Shown here: piece after piece, positions 17,269-52,792 of the stretch | Layout: each line of letters opens with the position of its first letter | Position numbering within the stretch: the first letter of the stretch is position 1 | Sequence record: NC_054921.1 | Reading direction: 5' to 3' (one strand) | Source of the DNA: Escherichia phage vB_EcoM_IME537 | Length of the DNA: 64,000 nucleotides | The notes under the pieces: generated by a model | Databases searched by the model: none | What the model was told of the DNA's origin: nothing | Seen by the model: the letters and a program-made list of their open reading frames with translations, nothing else | Program-made: the position numbers and the translations under genes

Positions 17269-18400
17269 TTATGGATAGGTATAGATGATACCAGTTTCTA
17301 AAGCAGTTTTATGAATGATGTATCCATTACGCGATTCTTGAACATCAACTTCTGGATAGTCTTTCATCATCTTCTGAAGAGTGTAACGATGCAAGTAGTA
17401 CTTACTATCTGGGTCGTCAGTTTTCCAATCTTTACCTTCTTCAGTCATTTTTTGGATTTCATCCATAACCCACCAACCGCACCAGATATAAGCTGAGCTA
17501 CGATGTGGAAGAGGATGAACATAAGGTAATTCACCTTCTGGTTCCGGAGCAACTTTATCAGTTACCTGAACTTGGCCTTCTGCTGTAATAGTTTTGCTAT
17601 CATAATCAGTGGCAGTAACAGTGGCAGTAACTTCAATAGTTTGACTTCCAATAGATGATGTATCAACGGTGTATACATTAGTTGACCCTTCTACAGGAGA
17701 AGAATCTTTCTTCCATGAGTAAGTAATTTGTGCTGCGTCAGGTGCGCCAGTAACATTAGCAGTAAATGTAGCCGAAGCATCCTGCTGAACATTAATAGAA
17801 GGAGGAGTCAATGCAATCTGTGGATTCATTGTCTTCTTATTAACTGTCAATGATACTTCATTAGAAGTAACTTCTTTTGTATCATAATCTGTCGCTGTTA
17901 CTTGAGCTACACACTTAATTTTTTTTAACTCCGCTTGTAGTAGGAGTGTAATTGAATGTAGCACTAGTTGCTTCGCTCACAGGAGAACCATCTACATGCC
18001 ACTGATACGTAGCAGATGCACCTGATGGTTGAGAAGCTAAGGCAGCGGTAAATTCAACAGGAGTTCCAATTACTCCAGCAGCAGGACTAGCAGGAGTTAC
18101 AGCTAAGGTAGTTGTCTGTGTCTTATTTTGAACTGTGATAGTTGTAGAAGCTTCTGCTGTTTCGGGACTACTATCGGCAACTTGATTGGTTGCAACTACT
18201 TTAATAGTCTTTTGACCGGCAGGTCCTTTTAGTACATAACTAAAAGTTGCTTCAGCTCCATCCTGTGGAACATCGTCTACAGTCCAAGCATAGGTAATAG
18301 TTCCACCTCCAGTTTCACCACTGGGTGTAGCAGTAAACTGCTGAGTCTGATCTATAACTCCAGTAGGTGTTTTAGGAGTTATATCAACTGTAAAAGCCAT
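17269..18400 (-). pseudogene. hoc: hoc (outer capsid Ig-like decoration protein) disrupted by a +1 frameshift in an A8 tract (plus-strand T8 at 17919-17926)
   Basis: 161-aa N-terminal ORF (17915..18400) and 231-aa C-terminal ORF (17269..17964) in different frames together reconstruct a ~376-aa Hoc; one fewer A restores GVKKIKCVAQ. Confidence 0.8.
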
Positions 18401-29506: not shown

Positions 29507-29562
29507 CTCATGTTATGTCAGTAAGTCTACTATAACACAACACGAGGGACTTGTAAACTACA
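29507..29562 (-). promoter_or_regulatory. T4 early promoter cassette, copy 1 (-35 GTTTAC, 18-nt spacer, -10 TATAGT, leader with RBS)
   Basis: 52 of 53 nt identical to 43601..43656. Confidence 0.65.
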
Positions 29563-29917
29563 TTTTGAACTTTTTAGTACGCGTAATAGGCATGCGTCGA
29601 TTTTATACTGTTTCATTGTTTGAAGAGCAGTATCAAAACAGCATTAATGACACCAATTGGATTTCCACCCAAGTTTTTAAGCTTAACTAATGATAGTTTC
29701 TCATTAACACCTATCATTACGATATGCATCATTTTGTCGCCTGGTTTAACGTTTTATCTGTATCACCGCCAGAGGTGTATGTACAAAATCTAAATCCAGG
29801 AAGCACGCTTTCTTCGCCGGCTTGAATAGCAAAAATTTGTGGTATTTTATGCTTAGGATTTAAGTTAACAACCGGCGCCGAAGCGCCGTCAAATAATTAT
29901 GTAATAAGTTCCATGAT
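29563..29917 (-). pseudogene. Degenerate duplicate of the 5' ~350 bp of alt (Alt N-terminal ~117 codons) with stops and frameshifts
   Basis: about 75% DNA identity to 31620..31969; translation MELIT*LFDGASAPVVNLNPKHKIPQIF...TYTSGGDTDK...KMMHIV... mirrors the Alt N-terminus. Confidence 0.7.
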
Positions 29918-45271: not shown

Positions 45272-46441
45272 TTAAAAATATTTTTTAAAACTCATCATAA
45301 CTTTATCATCAACATCATTATCAATCTGTGCTACAAGGTAAGATGACAGTTCTACTTCTTGCGGCGCGGATTGAACATTATCAGAATTAAGGTATTCACG
45401 AATCCAAGGATACGGATGTTTAACCGGAGCATCGGTAATTGGGCATGGAAGACCGCACTGTTTCATACGAGATACAGTTAAGTAATCAATAAAGCTCCAC
45501 ATGCTATTTGTATTTAATCCAGGAACATCGCCATCTTTAAATAAATGAACTGCCCAGTCTTTTTCTTGGCGGTTAACTTCCATGAAAATATCAACTGCTT
45601 CTTGTTCACACTCTTGAGCAATTTTAACCCATTCATCACCATCAGTGCCAAGTTGAAGTTGACGAATAATATATTGGGTGCCTTTAAGATGAAGCTGCTC
45701 ATCACGCGCAATGAACTTCATAATCTTGGCATTACCTTCCATGATTTCCATGTTCTTATGGAAGTTAAAGGTACATGCGAAAGATACGTAAAAACGAATA
45801 GCTTCCAATGCATTGATTACATGCAAGCAGAGGTAAAGAGATTTCATTAATGCTCGTTTAGTACATTCAACAACTTTGCCTAACTCTTCTTTACGAAATC
45901 CTTCTGATAAAATTCCTTCATAATCTTCAACCGCGTTTTGGTATTCACGAGTCTTAACTAGAACATCATCGTAATAGCGACCAATGGACTCGGCACGTTT
46001 CATAATAGCTTTATCTAATACAATCTCATCAAATACCTTTGATGGGTCAGTATAAAGATTTCGCATGATATGAGTATATGAACGACTGTGAATAGTTTCA
46101 CTAAAAGTCCATGTAGCAACCCATGTATCAAGACTTGGATCTGAAATTAATGACATAAGTACTGCAGACGGTGCACGACCCTGAATGCTATCTAGAAGTG
46201 ATTGATACTTCAGGTTATTAGTAAAAATATCTTGCTGATACTGAGGAAGCTTGTTAAATTGTGCAGCATCCATCATTAAGTTTACTTCTTCAGGACGCCA
46301 GAAAAATGATAAAGATTTCTCTGTAAGTTCTTCAAATACTCGATGCCGTTGAATATCATAACGCGCAATACCAAGACCTGAACCAAAAAACATAGGTTCT
46401 TTTAAAACATCAACTGGATTTGTATTAAAAACTGTAGACAT
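45272..46441 (-). CDS. nrdB: Ribonucleotide reductase small subunit NrdB, intronless
   Basis: 389 aa from ATG 46441 (MSTVFNTNP...); single continuous ORF. Confidence 0.93.
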   Translation of the reverse strand: MSTVFNTNPVDVLKEPMFFGSGLGIARYDIQRHRVFEELTEKSLSFFWRPEEVNLMMDAAQFNKLPQYQQDIFTNNLKYQSLLDSIQGRAPSAVLMSLISDPSLDTWVATWTFSETIHSRSYTHIMRNLYTDPSKVFDEIVLDKAIMKRAESIGRYYDDVLVKTREYQNAVEDYEGILSEGFRKEELGKVVECTKRALMKSLYLCLHVINALEAIRFYVSFACTFNFHKNMEIMEGNAKIMKFIARDEQLHLKGTQYIIRQLQLGTDGDEWVKIAQECEQEAVDIFMEVNRQEKDWAVHLFKDGDVPGLNTNSMWSFIDYLTVSRMKQCGLPCPITDAPVKHPYPWIREYLNSDNVQSAPQEVELSSYLVAQIDNDVDDKVMMSFKKYF

Positions 46442-47172
46442 TAATTTTTCCTCTTTAAAATTCTGCCGTGTTTCCAACCTGGCGGTATAATATCATCTTT
46501 ACCTATAAGCGTGCATTCACTTCCATTATTAATCCATTTCTTACCGCGGATTCCTTTATAATCTCTTGGTTTTATTTTGTCAAACTTTGCATCAAGTTGA
46601 TATGACCATCTAAATCCATAAGCATATTGAAATTTACCCTCGGCACAATATTTGATATTTGACCCGTTTCCATTAACTGACCGGGACGCTGCCGCAATAG
46701 AGTGAAAGGTTTCTATGAAATCCCCATCTAATGAGAATTTATGTATTTCTACAGATGGGCACGCATATCTATTCACGTTAGATACATGCTGTTTAGTTTC
46801 GTTTTTATGATGCTTGCCTAGCATCCCTTTAGGATGAGGATTATTTTTCCAATATTTCTTAAAGAACTCAGAATTAGCTTTAGCAAATAATTTTCTGTGT
46901 AAGCTGTACAATCTGTTATTAATTCTATTGCCAGCTTTATCTGTTGCCATTAACGTTAACGCAGAGGCAAGACCAAAATGGCCTTCATTTATCTTACATA
47001 GTAATAGATGAGCTATAAAATGTTCTCTGGCTGTTAATTCAACTAAATTTTCCTTATCATCAGAACCTCCCATACATTTAGGGATTATATGATGTGTCTC
47101 TTTATATTCTAGTAAAGATTCCCGAGCCTGAGCTCGGGAAATTAGGTCGTTATAGATTTTTTGATAATTCAT
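46441..47172 (-). mobile_element. mobE: Free-standing HNH homing endonuclease (mobE position between nrdA and nrdB)
   Basis: 243 aa; HNH motif ETHHIIPKCMGGSDDKENLVELTAREHFIAH; TAATG overlaps at both ends. Confidence 0.8.
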
Positions 47173-48161
47173 TACAATTTACACGCTGCGCAATCATCGG
47201 CTTTTGGAGTTTCTATTTCATAATCATCAGTACCGGAACCATCACGAGTATTATGATAATAGAAGTTTTTAATGCCATAATACCATCCGTATAGCATGTC
47301 ATCAATCATTACAGACATTGGAACTTTTCCTTTTGGAAAAATCTGCGGGTCATAATATGTATTTGCTGAAGCTGATTGACATACCCATTTCAGCATAATA
47401 GCTACTTGCGTAAGATAAGGTTTATTACCTTTTTTAGCTAATTTCCACGTATAATCATACAGGTCTATGTTATGCTCAATATTGGGCACGACTTGATTAA
47501 AGGAGCCCTCTTTTGATTCTTTAACAGAGACTGGTCCACGTGGAGGCTCGATACCGTTTGTACTGTTAGAAACTTGGGAAGATGACTCACATGGCATAAG
47601 TGCTGATAATGTGCTATTACGGATGCCAAAGAGCTTAAGGTCTTCCCGCAGCGACGACCAGTCACAAACGTATTTTGGAGCTGCGATTTGGTCAATCTTT
47701 TTATTGTACCAGTCGATAGGTAATTCGCCTCGAGACCAACGGGTGTCTGAATAATATTCGCAAGGTCCTTTTTCTTTGGCGAGCTTAATGGATGCTTTAA
47801 TGAGTCCATACTGTAATCTCTCAAATAGTTCATGTGTTAAATCGTTAGCATCTTCATAAGAAGCAAAATTACTTGCCAGCCAAGCTGCATAGTTAGTAAC
47901 ACCTACGCCAAGGTTTCGACGCTTTTTAGCTTTTTCTGCTTCAGGAACTGGATATCCTTGGTAATCCAAAAGATTATCAAGAGCACGAACTTGGACTTCT
48001 GCCAATTCATTAATTTTATCTTGGTCTTGCCAATCGAAGTTATCTAACACAAATGCAGATAACGTGCAGAGGCCCACTTCACCTTTGTTTTCAATAACTT
48101 GTATTGTTGTATACTCATCATCTTCGTAAAATTCATCTACAAATTCATAATCAATATTCAT
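47172..48161 (-). CDS. nrdA: NrdA C-terminal piece (carries GLCTLSAF and the C-terminal YY...CAAC tail)
   Basis: 329 aa; begins with a 23-aa acidic non-conserved head, then the conserved class I large-subunit sequence. Confidence 0.88.
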   Translation of the reverse strand: MNIDYEFVDEFYEDDEYTTIQVIENKGEVGLCTLSAFVLDNFDWQDQDKINELAEVQVRALDNLLDYQGYPVPEAEKAKKRRNLGVGVTNYAAWLASNFASYEDANDLTHELFERLQYGLIKASIKLAKEKGPCEYYSDTRWSRGELPIDWYNKKIDQIAAPKYVCDWSSLREDLKLFGIRNSTLSALMPCESSSQVSNSTNGIEPPRGPVSVKESKEGSFNQVVPNIEHNIDLYDYTWKLAKKGNKPYLTQVAIMLKWVCQSASANTYYDPQIFPKGKVPMSVMIDDMLYGWYYGIKNFYYHNTRDGSGTDDYEIETPKADDCAACKL

Positions 48162-48861
48162 TTAATTCTTCTACCTTTTTTCGAGATATTCCTAGAGCTT
48201 TAGATGCTCGATGTATTGATTGATATTCTATACCGTTTATTTTTACAGCAATTAAGTTATGGGGTTTTAATCCCTTTGGATGAGGTTTACTGACGTATTC
48301 TTGATTATCGTTTTCAGAGATATTATCAAGCTTTCGACACTTAAAGCCTTTATGTTGAGACCTTTTGCCTTTGCATACGGCCGACATTGCCGAAGCATTG
48401 AGTGAATGTAGTTCGCAAAATTCTCTTAGGCCTTTATGGATTTCTTCATGACCGTCCGGGAAAGTAAATACCCAAGTTGTTTGAAGTTTTTCTCTATGCT
48501 CGTCAGTTACCGGAATACCTTTGTTCCAAGCTGGTTTGCCTTTATTATTTTCAGATACAGAAATAGCCAATTTTCTTCTAAGCCACCCATGGCGTTTATT
48601 GGTGTTCTTTCGTTCAATATTATCTTCAGAATAAACACACATCATATTAGCGGCAAATACCAATTTATGATTATCTGGATATATCTTTACTAATAATTGA
48701 TGAGCTATGTAATGCTCTTCGGGTGTCAAATCTACCAGGTTTTCCTTTGTATCAGAACCACCAATACACAGAGGTATAATATGGTGTGATTCGGTATAGC
48801 AATCTAATTTTCTGTTCTTAGCTTTAGAAATAAGGTTATTGTAAATTTTAGAATAATCCAT
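48151..48861 (-). mobile_element. Second HNH homing endonuclease (mobE paralogue) inserted inside nrdA
   Basis: 236 aa; HNH motif ESHHIIPLCIGGSDTKENLVDLTPEEHYIAH; own RBS AAGAGGAAAA; C-terminal HTH-like RASKALGISRKKVEEL. Confidence 0.85.
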
Positions 48862-48906
48862 AACTTTTCCTCTTGTTATGGATTATTTATTAACGGTCTG
48901 TGTACT

Positions 48907-50340
48907 TTATTTGCTTTGAATTATACCGCCAGGATTAGCTTCATAAAACTTAGCTACATCCGACTTCTTAATTTTGATTAAACGGGTTTGTTGGCTATTG
49001 ACATCATTAGTTGGAATAGCAATTTCACAACACAAGTTGCTCTGACGAATAGGTGCCTTTTCGCGAATAAACGGAGTATAGTTATTCGTATTATCAATGA
49101 ACTGCACATAAATCCTTGCTGTTCCTGATCGTTCAGTCATGAGCAATTCAAACAGTTCACGGGCTTTAATACGCTTTTTACGAATATTAGGGTCTTTTTC
49201 TGCGGCTTCATATAATTCACGGAAACGGTCTTGGTCTTTAAAATAAGAATAATAAAGCTCGCCACCCATTTCGTGTGGACTGAACAAAGTAATGTAGTCG
49301 TTCTTTCCGAATCGTTCCATCATTAGGTCATTCAGCTGGACACCATAATCCATATGGCGGATACGGTTTTCTTCTACACCTTTGTTATTTTTCAAAACGA
49401 GAAGATTTTCAACTTCCAAATGCCAAATAGGATAATAAGCAGTAGCAGCACCGCCACGAATTCCGCCCTGTGAACATGATTTAACAGCAGTCTGAAAATG
49501 TTTCCAAAAAGGAATAACACCAGTATGGCGTACTTCACCTGTGCCAATCTTAGAACCTTCGGCACGAATCATACCAACGTTAATGCCGATTCCAGCTCGC
49601 TTGGAGATATATTCAACAATTGAAGCAGAAGCTTTGTTGATAGACTTCAGCGAATCACCTGCCTCAATAACAACGCATGAACTAAACTGTCGAGTTGGAG
49701 TACGACATCCAGCCATAATAGGAGTTGGCAATGAAATCTGTCGAGTGGATACTGCTTCATAAAAACGGATAACGTGTTTTAATCTATCAACAGGTTCATC
49801 TTGATGCAATGCCATTCCAATAGTCATAAACGCAAACTGTGGAGTTTCATAAATTTGACCAGTGGTTTTATCTTTAACGAGATATTTTTCTTTTAATTGC
49901 ATCGCCCCGGAATAAGTAAATTCCATATCCCGCTCATGCTTAATTTTTGATTCTAAAAATGTAATTTCTTCTGCTGAATATTTTGACAGCAGTTCAGGGT
50001 CATATTTACCTTCATTTACACAGTAAGAAATATGGTCAATAAATGAACATGGTTCATATTGCCCGTAAACATGCTTACGAAGAGCAAACATTAAACACCG
50101 TGCAGCTACATATTGATAATCAGGCTCTTCAACTGAAATAGAATTCGCAGCAGCCTTAATGACAATAGTCTGAATGTCATCAGTTGTCATTCCATCACGG
50201 AGATATGATTTAATATTTTCATATAATTCATAAGGATCTACAGATGTTCCTTCAGCTGCCCAAGATAAAACTTTAATAATTTTTTGCGGGTCAAAGCTTT
50301 GAGAAACACCACTACTTTTGATAACATTAATTAATTGCAT
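48907..50340 (-). CDS. nrdA: NrdA N-terminal piece (carries the active-site SNLCCEIAIP)
   Basis: 477 aa; MQLINVIKSSGVSQSF...; conserved sequence ends at ...IPTNDVN followed by a 29-aa basic tail and stop. Confidence 0.88.
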   Translation of the reverse strand: MQLINVIKSSGVSQSFDPQKIIKVLSWAAEGTSVDPYELYENIKSYLRDGMTTDDIQTIVIKAAANSISVEEPDYQYVAARCLMFALRKHVYGQYEPCSFIDHISYCVNEGKYDPELLSKYSAEEITFLESKIKHERDMEFTYSGAMQLKEKYLVKDKTTGQIYETPQFAFMTIGMALHQDEPVDRLKHVIRFYEAVSTRQISLPTPIMAGCRTPTRQFSSCVVIEAGDSLKSINKASASIVEYISKRAGIGINVGMIRAEGSKIGTGEVRHTGVIPFWKHFQTAVKSCSQGGIRGGAATAYYPIWHLEVENLLVLKNNKGVEENRIRHMDYGVQLNDLMMERFGKNDYITLFSPHEMGGELYYSYFKDQDRFRELYEAAEKDPNIRKKRIKARELFELLMTERSGTARIYVQFIDNTNNYTPFIREKAPIRQSNLCCEIAIPTNDVNSQQTRLIKIKKSDVAKFYEANPGGIIQSK

Positions 50341-50612
50341 AAGTCCTCAACTTGAAAATCGTCTTTAAACAATCGGTTAACTATATGAGCTATTATATCA
50401 CCATGACACGGCTTTGGTTTACATGTGCATCCTAGCCTCATTCCACGTAAAGGCTCTAAATGTGCTTTAGTTATTTCTCCGGATTTAATTCGACGTATAA
50501 AATCTTTTTTGAATAATTCAATGGCAGCCTCCCGGCTGCCAGCATCTTTACCGACGTAATTTCCCCAAAATGTACCACGGTGAATATTAACATCAAAGTC
50601 GGATTTATATTT
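50331..50612 (-). pseudogene. Conserved-looking ORF region (...GTFWGNY...LGCTCKPKPCHGD...) with no in-frame start; apparently disrupted
   Basis: 93 sense codons directly after the in-frame TAA of the upstream 87-aa ORF; the only nearby ATG (50659) is in another frame across an A5 tract. Confidence 0.5.
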
Positions 50613-50876
50613 TTATTCACTACTTGGCATAGACGGCCCGCGCGGTGATAATTCGTCATATTGTTTTTCCGTTAAAACAGTAATATCATAGTAACAATCA
50701 GAAGAAGTTTTAACCGTAGAAATTTTATTATCAAAATACTCACGAGTCATTTTATGAGTATAATATTTTTTGCCATAAATGATAATAGGCTGATTTGGTC
50801 CTGGAACTTCTAACTCGCTTGGGTTAGGAAGTGTAAAAAGAACTACACCAGAAGTATCTTTAAATCGTAAAATCAT
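50613..50876 (-). CDS. Hypothetical protein (nrdA.x position), in frame with the downstream disrupted region
   Basis: 87 aa ORF. Confidence 0.5.
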
Positions 50877-50899
50877 ATATCCTCACAATTAATAATTAA

Positions 50900-51759
50900 T
50901 TACACCGCCATTTTTCCTTTAATAGGAGGGTGTGATTCGTAACCTTTAAGAACGAAATCTTTAGGCCTGAGTTTAAGAACATATTCCAATTGTTCTTTAG
51001 TAGAAAGATAGCGGAATTTATAAGGCAATCCGCCTATTACCAGTTCACAAAGCTCTTTAGGTTCACGACGTAAAATTTCTTTACACTGTTCTATGTGATT
51101 CATATAGATATGAGTATTACCACCAGAAAATATCAAATCTCCTGGAATAAGATTACACATCTTAGCTACAATATGAACTAATGCAGCATATGATGCAATG
51201 TTGAATGGCAAGCCCAAGAACACGTCAACACTTCTTTGATACCACTGCAAATCCAAATAGCCATTACGCACATTAAACTGATAAAACATATGACAAGGTG
51301 GTAATGCCATATGTTTAAGTTCAGCTGGATTCCATGCTGAAACAATTTGACGCCTATCATTCGGCAGTTTTTTAATACGATCAATAACTTCTACAATTTG
51401 GTCTACACCGCCAAAATCACGCCACTGTTTTCCATAAATTGGACCAAGTTCACCACTATGATATCCTAAATCTTTTGCTTGATTTTCGTAATTTTCATCC
51501 CAGACTGTTTTGCCTTGAATTAATGAATCATGCTGAATTAATCGTAAATCATTTACGTTAGTACTTCCTGACAAAAACCATATTAGCTCAGCAATACAAG
51601 CTTTCCAGGCGAGCTTCTTAGTCGTTACTGCAGGAAAACCTTTAGTTAAATCCCAGCGTAATTTAGTACCGAACAAAGCAATTGTTCCTGTGCCTGTTCG
51701 GTCATCGGTTTCATAACCGTTTTCCAGGATATCTTTAATTAAAAATTGGTATTGTTTCA

Positions 51760-51760
<1 letters not shown>
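50900..51760 (-). CDS. td: Thymidylate synthase, intronless
   Basis: 286 aa from ATG 51760 (MKQYQFLIKD...); active-site PPCH; continuous ORF. Confidence 0.95.

Positions 51761-52792
<1,032 letters not shown>

Follow-up and report, generated by a model that had tools for sequence, protein, structure and literature searches.

A private frameshifted allele of nrdA.1, a DUF4326 gene, in the sequence of an Escherichia phage

Between nrdA.2 and nrdA, the sequence of Escherichia phage vB_EcoM_IME537 (NC_054921.1) carries a disrupted allele of nrdA.1. The gene is already known from phage T4, and its defect is of a known kind. Comparison with relatives indicates that a run of three adenines has grown to five just past codon 16, leaving the start codon and most of the conserved protein in different frames. 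This allele is private to the window, the 64,000-nucleotide stretch of this genome that was analysed. On balance we lean towards a real loss-of-function mutation of very recent origin, in an accessory gene that the phage can do without.

Genomic setting

Hundreds of Tequatrovirus (T4-like) genomes match the window at 95-99% identity in megablast searches with queries 50250-50950 and 40001-64000, and none is identical. Judged by these matches, the window is a Tequatrovirus segment. Phage HY01 is collinear with it from the neck and head genes through the long tail fibre genes. Genes on the minus strand follow the order frd, a small ORF, td, nrdA.2, nrdA.1 and nrdA, and the td-nrdA.2-nrdA.1-nrdA synteny is that of T4, overlaps included. 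The features of the locus are as follows.

51963-52574, minus strand: frd, from local gene order
50900-51772, minus strand: td, without an intron
50613-50876, minus strand: nrdA.2 (DUF5496), 87 aa, intact; from ORF translation and Pfam PF17600 (195 bits), and annotated as nrdA.2 in T4 and vB_SsoM_113
50612-50659, minus strand: nrdA.1 codons 1-16 in the native start frame, overlapping the 3' end of nrdA.2; from translation, with the same ATG in T4, SF2-1 and SsoM_113
50610-50614, minus strand: A5 run, the frameshifting lesion, two A's more than the A3 of relatives; from alignments and a census of relatives
50603-50609, minus strand: TATAAAT core of an annotated late promoter, directly 3' of the A-run; J03968 feature 393-406, AATAAATATAAATC, mapped on the window
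50331-50609, minus strand: nrdA.1 codons 17-108 and stop (YKSDFDV...CTCKPKPCHGD...EDLCN), out of frame with their own start and in frame with nrdA.2
50522-50541, minus strand: 8-bp G+C hairpin (UGGCAGCC-GGGA-GGCUGCCA) within the coding part of nrdA.1, at a distance of 68 nt from the A-run; annotated as stem_loop 467-486 in T4 record J03968
50471-50611, minus strand: out-of-frame tail (NINPTLMLIF...NPEK, then TAA) of a 62-aa product; from translation of the nrdA.1 ATG
50338-50348, minus strand: nrdA Shine-Dalgarno sequence (GAGGA) and ATG (50340), the nrdA start overlapping the nrdA.1 stop region; ribosome binding site annotated in J03968

A first-pass annotation had described most of this arrangement from the letters alone, and translation bears it out. 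The 87-aa ORF on the minus strand ends with TAA and is followed in the same frame by 93 sense codons (KYKSDFDV...EDLCN) that run to a TAA at 50331-50333. The ATG at 50659 does lie in another frame, where it opens the 62-aa ORF, and the A5 tract is present at 50610-50614.

A disrupted orthologue of T4 nrdA.1

The ORF with the Cys/His motif is the orthologue of T4 nrdA.1, which encodes a 108-aa single-domain DUF4326 protein. When the two frames are joined, the sequence matches Pfam DUF4326 (PF14216) at 77 bits (E 1.8e-21; gathering cut-off 25 bits) over profile positions 3-81 of 82. With two A's removed, the repaired protein has 108 aa (...EDLCN). It matches the intact proteins of BP32, 107, ESh32 and others at 100% identity, and the T2 and T6 proteins at 95-98%. 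Because of this score and this identity, the downstream frame is taken to encode a real protein rather than to be open by chance, as its appearance had suggested in the first reading.

T4 nrdA.1 (NP_049846, 'uncharacterized 12.4 kDa protein in nrdA-td intergenic region') has the same position, ATG and stop, and its protein is about 96-100% identical to the repaired product. In the T4 genome (NC_000866) the gene occupies 142671-142997 (327 nt). Its ATG lies 47 nt within nrdA.2 (142951-143214) in the other frame, and its 3' end lies just inside nrdA. Phages SF2-1 and vB_SsoM_113 have nrdA.1 annotated with this ATG and this 47-nt overlap, and the gene in relatives ends 8 nt within nrdA. Alignment with T4, which had been proposed as a check, finds no trace of the same stop and frame arrangement: T4 nrdA.1 has A3 and a single uninterrupted frame, whereas the window has A5 and changes frame past codon 16. 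Locus position and high identity over all 108 aa are thus those of T4 nrdA.1, the frame is interrupted, and the locus is a disrupted allele of this gene. The earlier claim that a conserved gene upstream of nrdA is broken at a homopolymer holds, the gene being the T4 nrdA.1 orthologue and the change two additional A's.

Conservation within the family shows which parts of the protein are separated. Full-library HMMER searching retrieved 1791 family representatives, and almost all alignments begin at query residues 9-13. Aligning 76 homologues shows V13, V14 and N15 to be near-invariant and N33, C77, C79, P81, C84 and H85 to be invariant. The repaired window sequence carries every one of these invariant residues, and the conserved VVN ... 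WGN ... CxCxPxxCHGD residues are all in place. As the window stands, VVN is in one frame and the other motifs are in another. An AlphaFold model built on the 76-homologue alignment (mean pLDDT 90.5) assigns residues 12-15 to strand 1, so that the frameshift parts the strand holding V13-V14-N15 from the WGN and CxCxPxxCHGD motifs.

[quoted passage not shown] Intact NrdA.1 is accordingly predicted in the literature to be a rhodanese/phosphatase-like enzyme that acts on ADP-ribose-derived ribose phosphates. Fusions of DUF4326 to SLOG, TIR and NADAR domains were confirmed on ten multidomain homologues. A PDB sequence search with NrdA.1 returned noise only (E>=0.5), and a full-text literature search for 'nrdA.1' returned genome descriptions and no functional data.

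DUF4326 genes adjoin ribonucleotide reductase genes in several distant phage groups (for example, KP15, Pastis, EK010 and Acj61). One PHROG named 'ribonucleotide reductase NrdA-like' weakly matches DUF4326.

The lesion and its distribution

T4 and all 90 relatives inspected read GAATAAATAT (A3) at the site where the window reads GAATAAAAATAT (A5). The alignments likewise show GTGAATAAATATAAATCC in T4, HY01, SF2-1, SsoM_113, W143, EC.W14-2, JEP6 and a Logan contig, and GTGAATAAAAATATAAATCC in the window. Since T4, HY01, SF2-1, SsoM_113, W143 and the 90 inspected records are all 2 nt shorter here, the lesion in the sequence is a two-nucleotide insertion past codon 16 rather than an A6 run shortened by one. 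One extra A would indeed join the two frames arithmetically, as had been pointed out, but the resulting A6 is not the ancestral state, because the relatives have A3. The first two A's of the run are provided by the nrdA.2 stop codon (TAA, 50613-50615). The insertion begins within this codon and therefore leaves nrdA.2 unchanged.

No further indel in nrdA.1 appears when the gene is aligned to its relatives, and a second, compensating change was rejected on this ground. The 279 nt on the 3' side of the run (50331-50609) are 100% identical to SF2-1, SsoM_113 and W143 at the nucleotide level and show no decay. An 84-nt probe across the run has flanks identical to those of HY01.

This probe matches 486 phage records, from which the 30 best and 60 evenly sampled ones, 90 in all, were inspected. 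The best match among the 486 is 97.6% identical, the value given by the 2-nt gap alone, and no record exceeds it. Every inspected record (90/90) spans 2 nt fewer than the probe, and the two-frame arrangement occurs in none of them. Scans of IMG/VR and JGI metagenome contigs gave no exact match to the A5 pattern, and a gapped pattern permitting A3 to A7 retrieved A3 alone. Exact look-up of the 62-aa frameshift product found no record in the public assembly index. The A5 allele is therefore a singleton. Because it is found in no phage record, IMG/VR entry or metagenome contig, and because the codons downstream of it show no decay, it is either a null mutation of very recent origin or an error made in base-calling or assembly.

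Effect on the encoded product

If the sequence is taken at face value, the two extra A's (A3 to A5) would shift the reading frame past codon 16. A ribosome starting at the ATG at 50659 would then make 16 native and 46 nonsense residues, the 62 aa of the translated ORF, and would halt at 50471. In the downstream frame no ATG, GTG or TTG occurs before 50441, the Met of MRLGC. The 92 conserved codons past the run have no usable start, so the allele as written is null.

Recoding and internal initiation

The unbroken downstream frame raises the question of whether a functional product might still be made. Full-length NrdA.1 could arise by -1 (or +2) slippage of tRNA-Lys/tRNA-Asn on U AAA AAU, or a NrdA.2-NrdA.1 fusion could arise by readthrough of the TAA. 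The A5 run does put AAA AAU in the zero frame, runs of A are prone to slippage by tRNA-Lys, and the downstream frame is perfectly kept. These features are, however, offset by others that make recoding of either type very improbable. The two-frame arrangement is found in none of the 90 inspected relatives, T4 having a single frame, and a private arrangement makes a programmed event improbable from the outset. If the ribosome slipped by -1, tRNA-Lys in the P site would be opposite UAA, with a mismatch in the first position, and for this reason U AAA AAU does not qualify as a canonical X XXY YYZ heptamer. There is no stimulatory structure within 5-9 nt of the run; the one stable hairpin is 68 nt further downstream, and the folding z-score of the region is only -1.9. 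The E. coli dnaX site (A AAA AAG), a programmed -1 site, is similar in having an A-rich run decoded by tRNA-Lys. Sites of the dnaX type differ from the window, which has no canonical heptamer, no suitably spaced stimulator, either a Shine-Dalgarno-like sequence upstream or a hairpin downstream, and no conservation. Programmed -1 or +2 frameshifting was rejected for these reasons. UAA is also the most efficient stop codon in E. coli, and a readthrough fusion would lack the conserved VVN strand. Readthrough from nrdA.2 was rejected because nrdA.1 is a separate, overlapping gene in all relatives, with its own ATG in the other frame. Rfam at gathering thresholds gave no match in 45500-52500, and so no recoding element or group I intron is recognized there. 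A terminator scan of 50200-51000 was likewise blank.

The C-terminal part of the protein might instead be made alone with some function, for example as a 36-aa CxCxPxxCHGD peptide from the in-frame ATG at 50441. This idea is still more improbable than recoding. Initiation at 50441, the earliest possible start in the frame, would yield a peptide without strand 1, the WGN loop, or helices 1-2 of the predicted fold, a loss of fold that is implied by the model. Such an architecture occurs in none of the 1791 representatives. Internal initiation was rejected because the peptide lacks most of the predicted fold and no homologue resembles it. Taken jointly, functional recoding and internal initiation are given only a very small chance. 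Among the explanations first put forward for the locus, a pseudogene and a homopolymer error thus survive, whereas stop-codon readthrough and programmed frameshifting do not, given the private arrangement, the missing heptamer and the separate ATG in relatives.

Recurrent loss of nrdA.1 in related phages

Other Tequatrovirus phages carry frameshift alleles that resemble that of the window in being small indels in short homopolymers of nrdA.1, with the neighbouring genes intact. The most widespread is A6->A7 at codons ~50-51, which occurs on two haplotypes; the phages that carry it number at least 15 and come from several laboratories or projects. One haplotype comprises the EC.W series (including EC.W14-2) and S2_01, and the other comprises Lutter, the CHD2BS1/G3G/PM series and Ec_MI-02. 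Five phages (HY03, JEP6, SG1, pSe_SNUABM_01 and ELT1) have in common a T4->T3 allele in which the WGN motif is scrambled. A G4->G5 allele is found in the Logan read-derived contig SRR21919622, in three samples, and the nrdA N-terminal piece of this contig is identical in protein sequence to that of the window. Phage P0027 has a further type of frameshift allele.

These alleles differ from that of the window in lying at codons ~31 or ~50 instead of 16/17, in being changes of +/-1 instead of +2, and in several cases in occurring in multiple isolates where the window allele is a singleton. Together with A3->A5 there are at least five independent frameshift alleles (A6->A7, T4->T3, G4->G5 and that of P0027 being the others), all in short homopolymers. 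Since at least four of them arose independently in relatives, nrdA.1 is evidently dispensable and null alleles persist in nature. The pattern suggests recurrent loss of the DUF4326 gene in T4-like phages.

It is conceivable, though we consider it unlikely, that nrdA.1, besides being dispensable, is repeatedly disfavoured by selection in some hosts. If so, these losses would be of an escape or contingency type. Particular defence systems of the bacteria would sense the predicted ADP-ribose or nucleotide-signal enzyme, or make it costly. Natural nrdA.1 knock-outs could in any case help to find the function of DUF4326, a widespread domain of phages and giant viruses.

Genuine mutation or sequence artefact

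The competing explanation for the A5 run is that the phage truly has A3 and an intact nrdA.1, and that two A's entered the record by base-calling, consensus polishing or record editing. This is a substantial possibility, to which we give somewhat less weight than to a real mutation. It is consistent with the private status of the allele and the absence of its 62-aa product from public assemblies. It also fits the 279 downstream nucleotides that have no substitution relative to intact relatives, and the flanks that are identical to HY01 over the 84-nt probe. Moreover, the same window holds a second private homopolymer change, hoc T7->T8, of a kind typical of homopolymer miscalls. Against this, an addition of two bases to a run of three is an unusual error type; the usual miscall is +/-1 in a long run. 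Only two clean homopolymer changes affect coding sequence in 64 kb, both in dispensable genes, and clean single-base homopolymer differences from HY01 lie in intergenic DNA. The most telling point is that true frameshift alleles of nrdA.1 circulate among related phages, in which the gene has been broken by independent lesions. We infer that the insertion probably sits in the DNA and not in the sequence file alone.

The first-pass annotation had counted this as the third homopolymer-linked disruption in the window, and a protein-level audit against HY01 agrees. Exactly three genes are broken, namely hoc, a remnant of an alt paralogue (29533-29896) and nrdA.1, whereas every essential gene for structure or replication is intact. 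Both hoc and nrdA.1 are non-essential, judging from T4 and from the frameshift alleles of related phages. None of the three broken genes is essential, the alt copy being a duplicated paralogue.

In hoc (17269-18400, minus strand), T7->T8 near 17919 splits the gene into ORFs 17915-18400 and 17269-17964. The T8 allele, too, is private; PD112, the nearest relative, has T7, and exact look-up of the N-terminal fragment found no record. The region 29533-29896 is the remnant of a second alt-like ADP-ribosyltransferase, in which residues ~8-117 of the HY01 paralogue are left, spread over three frames. It has two -1 changes in A5/T5 runs, and ~1.7 kb of HY01 sequence is deleted. Because of this 1.7-kb deletion, the alt defect is not a base-calling error.

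For annotation, the locus should be labelled nrdA.1 (DUF4326), frameshifted. The A-run and the T8 run of hoc need to be checked in reads before gene content is interpreted.

Promoter elements and expression of neighbouring genes

The A-run is part of a 14-nt element, AATAAATATAAATC, that is annotated as a late promoter in J03968, and the insertion leaves its TATAAAT core unaltered. With nrdA.2, the late-promoter core and the nrdA ribosome binding site (GAGGA) untouched, the neighbouring genes should still be expressed. The stop at 50471 would abolish any translational coupling from nrdA.1 to nrdA, but nrdA expression should not need such coupling.

J03968, a T4 nrdA record from 1988, annotates several elements inside the nrdA.1 coding sequence (50494-50617): the late promoter over the A-run, two stem-loops and a -35/-10 pair. 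It has no coding-sequence annotation for nrdA.1 itself.

Mobile elements around nrdA

The nrdA gene of the window is itself split in two, nrdA-a and nrdA-b, on the minus strand (47172-50340). The nrdA-a piece (48907-50340, 477 aa) terminates shortly past the CCEIAIPTNDVNS active-site region and has a 28-aa tail. The nrdA-b piece (47172-48161, 329 aa) has a new N-terminus of 27 aa. Between them lies an HNH homing-endonuclease ORF (48151-48861, 236 aa), and Rfam finds no group I intron in the split gene. HY01, PEC04 and FL44 share this arrangement, which is similar to the 'genes-in-pieces' nrdA of Aeromonas phage Aeh1. A mobE-like HNH ORF of 243 aa (46441-47172) separates nrdA-b from nrdB, and neither td nor nrdB contains an intron in the window.

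The Logan contig that carries the identical nrdA-a piece (locus L013 1-942) has an I-TevI-type GIY-YIG ORF directly upstream of a 104-aa thymidylate-synthase ORF, the pattern expected of an interrupted td. Comparison of this contig with the window shows that mobile-element content is mosaic among close relatives.
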